Source: Candidatus Woesearchaeota archaeon (GTDB lineage Archaea; Nanobdellota; Nanobdellia; SCGC-AAA011-G17; UBA489). From it: a stretch of DNA of 62,737 bases. The stretch spans positions 1 through 62,737 of the forward strand of contig JABHVN010000002.1 of NCBI GenBank assembly GCA_018658265.1, given 5' to 3'. Shown one piece after another: positions 18,975-26,575 of the stretch. The notes under the pieces were generated by a model. That model did not search any database. It saw only the letters and a list, made by a program, of their open reading frames with translations, and was not told the origin of the DNA. Each line of letters opens with the position of its first letter. The first letter of the stretch is position 1. The position numbers were made by a program, and so were the translations under genes.

Positions 18975-20582
18975 TTAATAAATTGGCAAATTATTAGTTC
19001 CGTTTAACCAAAAGGTATATTCAAAGGCAGTCCTTCCATTAAATGCGCTGTTTAGGTCACTAACAATATATTTTATATCTGCTTTATTATTATCTGTCAC
19101 AATTTCATAGTATCCGGAATCTGCTGAACCCCAAATTCCTTTATTATAATCTGCAACGCCATTATTATCGTAATCCATTACATCTTTGAAGCAATTTAAT
19201 TTTGACCAAGGCGCTCCAACACCAGAAGATTTTCCACCAGAGATATAATACACTCCATCACCTTGATTATTTGCATCTTTTTTTTCACCAATAGTTGCTA
19301 CATGATCATGACTCAAAAAGAAAAATTGGCCATTATACTTTTTCATTAATTTGTGCAATGTTGCTTGCTCTCCTAAAAAGGTACCATTAACTTCTCCATT
19401 ATCCGTAGCCTTCAAACTACTTCGCCCATAAAAATAACAAGATATTGATGAATTTGGATCAGTTACTCCTCCATCTATATGCTCAATAAATACAAACTTC
19501 CATTTTCTATCAGAAGTTTTCAAAACCTCTTCAAACCACGATAATTGTTGGGTACCCAAGGTCCATTCATTAACATTTTGAGGAATATCCTCGGGACCGC
19601 CCATAATATCTAAAACTATTATTTGAACATCGCCAGAAGAAAAAGTATAATACTGACCTTCGGGATTACCAATAAATACTTCGCTAGGATTAGGTAAATA
19701 TTTCATTCGTGCATTATGGCTTAAATTTGCAATTTTATCAGAATGATCACATTGGTCAAGTGCACTATTGGGGTCTCCAAAACTAGTTTCTCCATCATGA
19801 TTTCCTAACTTGTAAATCATTGGTGCAGAATCAGTAATTGCACCATAAACATCCTCGCCAAGGATTAATTCATATCTTAATTCTGCTTCTCTTGCATTTT
19901 CAACAGAGGTATCTCCAGAATCTTCACCATTAATATTACACCTATCACACCCATTACAATGAGTCATAGCTTCATCTCCACCCATTACAAAAAATTCTGC
20001 TTTAGGGGAAATATCAATTATATTATTCAATGTTTGTTTATGTAAATCCATTCCATCTATAGCCCTTTGATTTGGAACTCCAGGAGCACAAACCTCATTC
20101 CTATTTCCCCTGGAATATAATCCATAATAATGGGAGTCTGCCATTGCTACAAAGGTAACTGGATTAGTATCATCCCTATCTCTTAAGGTTCTAAATGTAT
20201 ATTCTTCTCGAACTCCAAAACTAGTTCCATTAGCTTTTTTACATCTAGTTCTATAAAAATATCTTTTTCCAGGATCTAATCTATCTAATTTGAAAGTTAC
20301 TCTTTCTCCTGCTAAAACAGTTTTAATAGAAGTACTCGCTAAATATTTTTCTCTTTTATAACCCTACTCAATGTAAACATCCGCATCTTCTTTTGGAACC
20401 ATACTAACATCCATGGTAGTTAATTGGGGATTAGATAATGTTTCTTCAATAGTAAACTCTACATCGCATAAATACTTTTCAGAACTAACTAAACTTTGTG
20501 CATAAATTGATTGAATAGAAACAACTGCTACAAATAAGAATATTACTACAGAAAAAATAACCGATGCTTTCTTTGAATACAT
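18975..20582 (-). pseudogene. Secreted purple-acid-phosphatase-like metallophosphoesterase interrupted by an in-frame TAG at 20364..20366
   Basis: ORFs 20364..20582 (signal peptide MYSKKASVIFSVVIFLFVAVVSIQSIYA) and 18975..20144 share one frame. The 73 codons between them are open and encode GERVTFKLDRLDPGKRYFYRTR..EYTFRTL (PAP N-terminal Fn3-like domain) running into the metallophosphatase motifs FVAMADSH, GGDE, GNHD, FIEH, LSHDH. Confidence 0.75.
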
Positions 20583-20603
20583 AAATAAAATTAAAATTTA
20601 AAG

Positions 20604-20612
20604 TTTATAAAA
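20604..20612 (-). promoter_or_regulatory. TATA-like box (TTTTATAAA on the minus strand) upstream of the phosphoesterase ATG
   Basis: Sits about 25 nt upstream of the ATG at 20582, implying a leaderless or near-leaderless transcript; sequence only. Confidence 0.3.
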
Positions 20613-20636
20613 CTTTCACTAAGGAATAAAAATAAG

Positions 20637-20659
20637 AAAAAAAGAGGGGTTAACCTCTC
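20637..20659 (-). terminator. Hairpin plus T7 tract directly after the S-layer-like gene
   Basis: Minus strand reads GAGAGG-TTAA-CCCCTC (one mismatch) followed by TTTTTTT, starting 5 nt after the TAA of 20665..21987. Confidence 0.45.
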
Positions 20660-20664
20660 TTTAT

Positions 20665-26231: not shown

Positions 26232-26575
26232 TTAACCATAAATTAAAGCGCCTACAATTATGAAAATATAACAAATTTCCCAAAGAATATATGTTATAAC
26301 CAAAGGCTTTTCTTTATGTACAATTCCATAAAAGATCATTACCAAAGCTACAAAAAATAAGATATCCAAGAAACTACAGAAATTCCTGCCACATTTTTTT
26401 CAACCCATATTTTTAAGATTTGGGGAATAGTCATAACCAAACCAAAAAAACCAGCAGCATAAACCAGTTTATCCAAATTATTTTTTAGTTTATTTGGATG
26501 AGGATACTTTTCAAATTTTGTATGTACCCGTTTTCTAATATGTTGATGACTCTTTACATGCGTATCATGAACCAT
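26232..26575 (-). pseudogene. PQ-loop / SemiSWEET-like 3-TM transporter split by a -1 frame change at T6 (T TTT TTG TAG)
   Basis: The 0-frame ORF 26348..26575 carries TM1 with the PQILK motif and half of TM2, then stops at TAG 26348..26350. The -1 frame continues FFVALVMIFYGIVHKEKPLVITYILWEICYIFIIVGALIYG to TAA at 26232, completing TM2 and TM3. Confidence 0.65.

Follow-up and report, generated by a model that had tools for sequence, protein, structure and literature searches.

The window, meaning the whole stretch of 62,737 nucleotides that was analysed, belongs to a small (~0.6 Mb, 32% GC) DPANN-type archaeon that is marine and symbiotic in type. Translation of 18975..20582 on the reverse strand gave 535 codons with a sole internal stop, a TAG at 20364..20366 (codon 73) in the context att gag TAG ggt tat. 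The 72-aa ORF in front of this stop (20367..20582) and the 389-aa ORF further downstream (18975..20144) share one frame. An in-frame scan of the 73 codons in between (20145..20363) detected no ATG, GTG or TTG and no stop; this stretch is translatable only by reading through the TAG. The original prediction had described the two ORFs as parts of one secreted metallophosphoesterase gene with a purple acid phosphatase (PAP)-like product, split by a single TAG that is followed by 73 stop-free codons. Translation confirmed the common frame and the stop-free stretch, and the single gene was borne out by the 535-codon frame and by a full-length orthologue. The features of the locus are listed in Table 1.

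Table 1. Features of the interrupted phosphoesterase gene, with positions in the window.
Feature	Position	Strand	Description
Whole ancestral gene	18975..20582	-	535 codons + stop; FN3-like domain, then calcineurin-type metallophosphoesterase domain; interrupted once
Premature TAG, codon 73	20364..20366	-	TAC (Tyr) in orthologues; predicted strand 67-74, pLDDT 93-97
72-codon 5' stub	20367..20582	-	Signal-peptide-like N-terminus and first three FN3-like beta-strands
Putative export signal, residues ~1-29	20496..20582	-	MYSKK, hydrophobic run, IYA/QS; read from sequence
73 codons with neither stop nor start	20145..20363	-	Remaining four FN3-like strands and catalytic strand beta-1
389-aa ORF with catalytic domain	18975..20144	-	All metal-binding motifs intact
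D149-x-H151 motif	20130..20138	-	Invariant/near-invariant alignment columns
G202-D203 motif	19974..19979	-	Invariant/near-invariant alignment columns
G260-N261-H262 motif (D263 next)	19797..19805	-	Invariant/near-invariant alignment columns
H368	19479..19481	-	Invariant/near-invariant alignment column
H425-D-H427 motif	19302..19310	-	Invariant/near-invariant alignment columns
TATA-box-like TTTATAAA	20604..20611	-	~22 nt upstream of ATG

The final ~40 nt upstream of the ATG are identical in the window and in the intact orthologue, and the TTTATAAA box is a putative promoter element of the gene. Within 20583-20664 (reverse strand), a hairpin, GAGAGGTTAACCCCTC, and then a T7 run follow directly after the S-layer-like gene. 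The hairpin is conserved in the orthologous contig L006 and separates the S-layer-like gene from the TATA-like box that the phosphoesterase gene has of its own.

Full-length homologues of 519-540 aa were found in a collection of 5.8 billion proteins, including P0002 (536 aa) with 82% identity over 100% of the query length. A 15-sequence alignment showed a hydrophobic N-terminus in all aligned homologues. The ancestral product is predicted to be secreted or anchored, and its signal peptide would probably be cleaved at IYA/QS. In the same alignment, the window protein carries intact all five metal-binding motifs of the calcineurin-like metallophosphoesterase superfamily (DxH, GD, GNH[DE], H and GHxH). 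With Pfam, PF00149 matched 12 of the 15 aligned homologues, and the window protein itself gave no match at E <= 0.01. The Pur_ac_phosph_N model (PF16656) matched across the stop (residues 49-132 or 53-132) with 24.8 bits against a cut-off of 30, and the PhoD model (PF09423) matched the read-through product with 16.7 bits, under its cut-off of 27. A usable family name for the phosphoesterase was not obtained from NCBIfam.

An AlphaFold2 model was built from the 15-sequence alignment (pLDDT 85, pTM 0.86; pLDDT 93-97 over residues 41-140). It consists of a low-confidence N-terminal helix (residues 6-27) that corresponds to the export signal, a seven-strand sandwich (43-50, 57-63, 67-74, 87-89, 95-99, 107-116 and 128-131) and a catalytic domain that opens with strand beta-1 (residues 142-147). 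In the original prediction the stop separated the signal peptide from the catalytic domain, and the model corrects this position: codon 73 falls in strand 3 of 7, inside the FN3-like sandwich and between no domains.

Whole-length Foldseek comparison returned metallophosphoesterases at the top, with PhoD (2yeq) at E 7.9e-22 and TM 0.62-0.64 and plant PAPs at E ~1e-19, while the PDB profile search ranked PhoD behind a plant purple acid phytase, its top hit with E 1.9e-12. The order of domains, with the FN3-like sandwich at the N-terminus and the metallophosphoesterase domain behind it, is that of the PhoD alkaline phosphatase/phosphodiesterase of Bacillus subtilis, which is exported; in contrast to PhoD, to which sequence identity is 12%, inspection of the N-terminus MYSKKASVIF revealed no twin-arginine (RR) motif, and the metal site and substrate of the window protein are putative. 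Although 2yeq is the best PDB fold match, the sub-threshold PhoD model and the missing RR motif make the window protein a structural relative of PhoD and not a demonstrated member of that family. The same two-domain fold occurs in plant PAPs and phytases (6git/6gja, 3zk4 and 2qfp), which gave the best PDB sequence-profile match, but motif I of the window protein is D-S-H, the canonical metallophosphoesterase form, instead of D-x-G, and motif II reads GDEAM, in which the chromophoric Tyr ligand of GDxxY is missing. The set of seven invariant PAP ligands, Tyr among them, is incomplete in this protein. Because of these two motifs, the earlier term "PAP-like" is valid for the fold only, and the protein is not a true PAP.

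The syntenic orthologue P0002 is encoded on contig L006 (84 kb) among the same neighbours as in the window, namely the GTPase/OapB/OapC triad, the S-layer-like gene (~440 aa) and the giant LamG protein. Codon-by-codon comparison of the two genes showed TAC (Tyr) in P0002 at the site of the TAG, and TAC also stands at codon 73 in G008, a species of the same genus. Of the 15 aligned homologues, at least 90% have Tyr at position 73, as part of a conserved V/I-E-Y-G strand. A single C-to-G substitution in the coding strand accounts for the TAG. A recent nonsense mutation had been among the explanations first proposed, with the orthologous codon as the check, and the TAC found in L006 and G008 supports it, as does the frameshifted or deleted state of the gene in relatives (see below).

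A base-call or assembly error, with a sense codon in the organism, had been proposed as well, and the consensus of a metagenome-assembled genome (MAG) can contain errors. However, the same TAG was present in 12 separately fetched contigs (L014-L024 and L042), some of which may come from the same samples. They comprise ENA MEGAHIT assemblies, JGI 3300028706, two NCBI MAGs (including GCA_018661155.1) and the Logan assemblies SRR3724508, SRR3725354 and SRR3725726, and thus different pipelines and projects. Over the 1608-nt gene, ten of the contigs L014-L024 were 100% and one was 99.94% identical to the window, TAG included, and L042 carries the same 72-aa gene call. The exact 72-aa stub product is recorded on 44 contigs (75 index blocks), and an exact look-up of the Y73 version of the window protein found none on record. 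A pattern scan of metagenome contigs for any codon at position 73, which covered only records less close to the window, returned no match and carries no weight here. With the identical codon in so many assemblies, an error at this site is extremely unlikely. The flanking DNA differs by 0-0.18% among the assemblies (6 kb compared), and the population variants in the gene are two singleton amino-acid changes and zero synonymous changes, which are too few for pN/pS. The population is near-clonal, and the TAG is older than its scant diversity. In another assembly of the same population, GCA_018668905.1, contig JABJAZ010000095.1 (locus L010) ends inside the gene at about window position 20199, 165 nt downstream of the TAG. 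This truncation yields a 407-aa partial protein, P0003, which is the representative of a 90% cluster.

If the TAG were decoded as an amino acid, by a changed genetic code or as pyrrolysine, full-length proteins would be made, and two 535-aa versions with Q73 (P0028 and P0031) are indeed present in public collections. The possibility that these represent a CAG allele or a revertant was rejected: their DNA has TAG, and the translation matches only with TAG=Q. They arose where gene callers read TAG as Q on short contigs (~2.0-3.2 kb; among L018-L024, from ENA and Logan) and are a database artefact, that is, spurious "intact" proteins. In the genome set (617 kb, 47 contigs, 92% complete, ~32% GC), the ORFs of at least 200 aa end with TAA in 213, TAG in 80 and TGA in 72 cases (n = 365). 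TAG therefore terminates 22% of the long ORFs in the genome and 10 of 44 in the window, where it had rightly been called a genuine stop. ARAGORN runs with and without introns (33 and 20 tRNAs) found no CUA anticodon in the 92%-complete genome. PylS was also absent there, the best PylS_Cterm match reaching 17.9 bits against a cut-off of 178 while the M. acetivorans positive control passed. The search for suppressor tRNA or pyl genes that had been suggested thus came back empty. An in-frame UAG between same-frame archaeal ORFs is also known from the pyrrolysine-containing methyltransferase genes of methanogens, but in the present case PylS and tRNA-Pyl are missing, the enzyme class is unrelated, and the orthologues have Tyr, not Lys or Pyl, at position 73 with no conserved UAG. 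The genome contains no pyrrolysine decoding system in the 92% covered and does not use a TAG-reassigned code, and the probability that this TAG is recoded is close to nil.

In intron mode, ARAGORN placed tRNA-Tyr(GTA) at C16:6941-7062 with a 50-nt intron; it also made a probably spurious call of a tRNA-Pro(GGG) at C17:8799-9758 that would have an 864-nt "intron". A genome-wide scan returned 33 same-frame ORF pairs split by one stop, of which the phosphoesterase gene alone combined an amber stop with a long stretch free of start codons. The one other long pair, split by TAA at C19:37078-38172 (reverse strand), looks like a low-complexity spurious frame over a repeat and not like a second split gene. 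It consists of a small YfcE-type metallophosphoesterase ORF (214 aa), the TAA, and 150 in-frame start-less codons of Ser/Cys/Phe low complexity.

Among 40 related genomes, the protein was matched in only two others, G008 and G002. The G008 orthologue (C2:71690-73293, reverse strand; L004) is 70-75% identical and is split into two frames by a 1-nt deletion, at which the sequence reads GCAGA/TTCTTTGTAATGG (TTCTTT after the slash) vs GCAGAATTTTTTGTAATGG / GCAGAATTTTTT in the window. G008 also has an additional 141-aa ORF that separates its S-layer-like gene from its phosphoesterase gene. In G002 an intact gene with 35% identity occupies the same slot, and a second copy is present elsewhere. No remnant of the phosphoesterase gene was found in G003, G004, G005, G006 and G007, where the S-layer-like and giant genes are only ~75-245 nt apart. 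A maximum-likelihood tree of the S-layer-like neighbour gave the topology (G008,((window, intact species),(G005,G003))) with starred support. In this one small clade, a single species retains an intact phosphoesterase gene, one carries the amber mutation, one the frameshift, and at least one deletion has occurred. The frameshift and the deletions in relatives indicate that the gene is dispensable in the genus and is being lost through different lesions in different species.

The dN/dS between the window gene and its intact orthologue is 0.096 (dS ~1.1), with 0.12 before the TAG, 0.15 from the TAG to motif I and 0.08 in the catalytic part. Relaxed selection on the window branch was not significant in a relative-rate test (33 amino-acid changes vs 24 in the orthologue, p = 0.29), for which G008, with saturated dS, served as the outgroup. 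The low dN/dS, the intact motifs and the intact 40 nt upstream indicate that purifying selection acted on the gene almost throughout the period since the two species split, and hence that the stop is recent.

The preserved state of the gene bears also on leaky read-through, in which the UAG would occasionally be decoded by near-cognate tRNA-Tyr(GUA) or tRNA-Gln(CUG), giving a little full-length exported phosphatase, and the allele would be tolerated or kept as a low-expression variant. In its favour, the promoter-proximal DNA, every catalytic motif and the rest of the gene have stayed intact, but a recent mutation explains this equally well. The TAG allele is the sole one on record for the population; the genome encodes tRNA-Tyr(GTA) and tRNA-Gln(CTG, TTG) according to ARAGORN, and the ancestral protein would be regained if Tyr were inserted. 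The codon itself, however, has no special context, since TAG is a common terminator and is followed by G at 12 of the 80 ordinary TAG terminators, and no stimulatory RNA fold was found in the 123 nt from the stop onward when compared with shuffled sequence (z = +0.47). The frameshifted or deleted copies of close relatives argue for dispensability, and according to a review, Sec and Pyl are the only cases in which archaea have been shown to read through termination codons (PMC8211752). The read-through offered as one explanation in the original prediction therefore gained no support from suppressor tRNA, PylS, RNA fold or stop usage, and we regard it as unlikely. It is somewhat more doubtful still that the amber codon owes its persistence to near-cognate decoding at a low level, e.g. 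by tRNA-Tyr, which would keep supplying a trickle of full-length exported phosphatase; as the gene is intact apart from the TAG and the diversity of the population is almost nil, selection after the mutation is not measurable. If true, it would be a case of archaeal read-through by neither Sec nor Pyl, of a kind not listed as demonstrated in PMC8211752. Read-through, if shown, would raise the importance of the locus, but nothing points there.

Another reading is that the downstream ORF is expressed alone as a cytoplasmic phosphoesterase that starts at the ATG at 20144 (389 aa) or at one further on (358 aa), so that the gene would be remodelled and not killed. The original prediction had held that this ORF lacks both an export signal and a full active site. 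The first part is correct; the second is not, since the ATG at 20144 encodes M147, two residues before D149-S-H151, and the 389-aa product would keep every metal-ligand motif. It is also predicted by gene callers in many assemblies. On the other hand, such a product would be missing strand beta-1 (142-147), from which the chain enters D149, as well as its signal peptide and its N-terminal FN3-like domain. In PhoD and the plant PAPs, the nearest structural matches over the full length, this domain is integral to the protein. The nucleotides preceding the start codon (gtt acc ttt gta gca ATG) show no ribosome-binding-like sequence, and the truncated architecture was found in no homologue except the calls on this broken locus and the frameshifted G008 copy. 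Independent expression is therefore very improbable.

We consider it highly probable that the TAG is a real, recent and fixed TAC to TAG nonsense mutation which inactivated an accessory exported metallophosphoesterase gene of PhoD/PAP fold, in the ordinary course of gene decay. A single C-to-G change would have turned the TAC of Tyr73 into TAG and become fixed in the near-clonal population. Translation would then end after residue 72, leaving a stub of the signal peptide and three of the seven sandwich strands that would be unable to fold, and the catalytic domain would not be made in exported form. Termination at the TAG is presumably efficient, with no useful product made. With a sense codon one substitution away, a real lesion and a gene that is dispensable in relatives, the locus can be classed from its sequence as a probable young nonsense pseudogene. 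It resembles the young amber pseudogenes of reduced or drift-prone prokaryotic genomes in its single-step lesion, otherwise intact gene, fixation and independent loss in relatives. Nothing essential differs from these; the same allele recurs across the assemblies of several projects, and the intact, point-broken and deleted stages stand side by side in one genus.

The finding is ordinary in kind, and its importance lies mainly in annotation: the locus is best labelled as one pseudogene instead of two genes, whereas gene calls at present list its stub and fragments as products of 72, 389, 358 and 407 aa. It also offers a small but clear picture of reductive evolution within one DPANN-type genus, in which an accessory gene of a surface island is intact, amber-mutated, frameshifted or cleanly deleted among sister species.

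About 6 kb away in the window, a PQ-loop/SemiSWEET-like gene (26232-26575, reverse strand) contains the sequence tct tat ttt ttg tag, a T6 run and then TAG. This gene appears to need a change of frame to continue and may be a second disrupted gene in the window.
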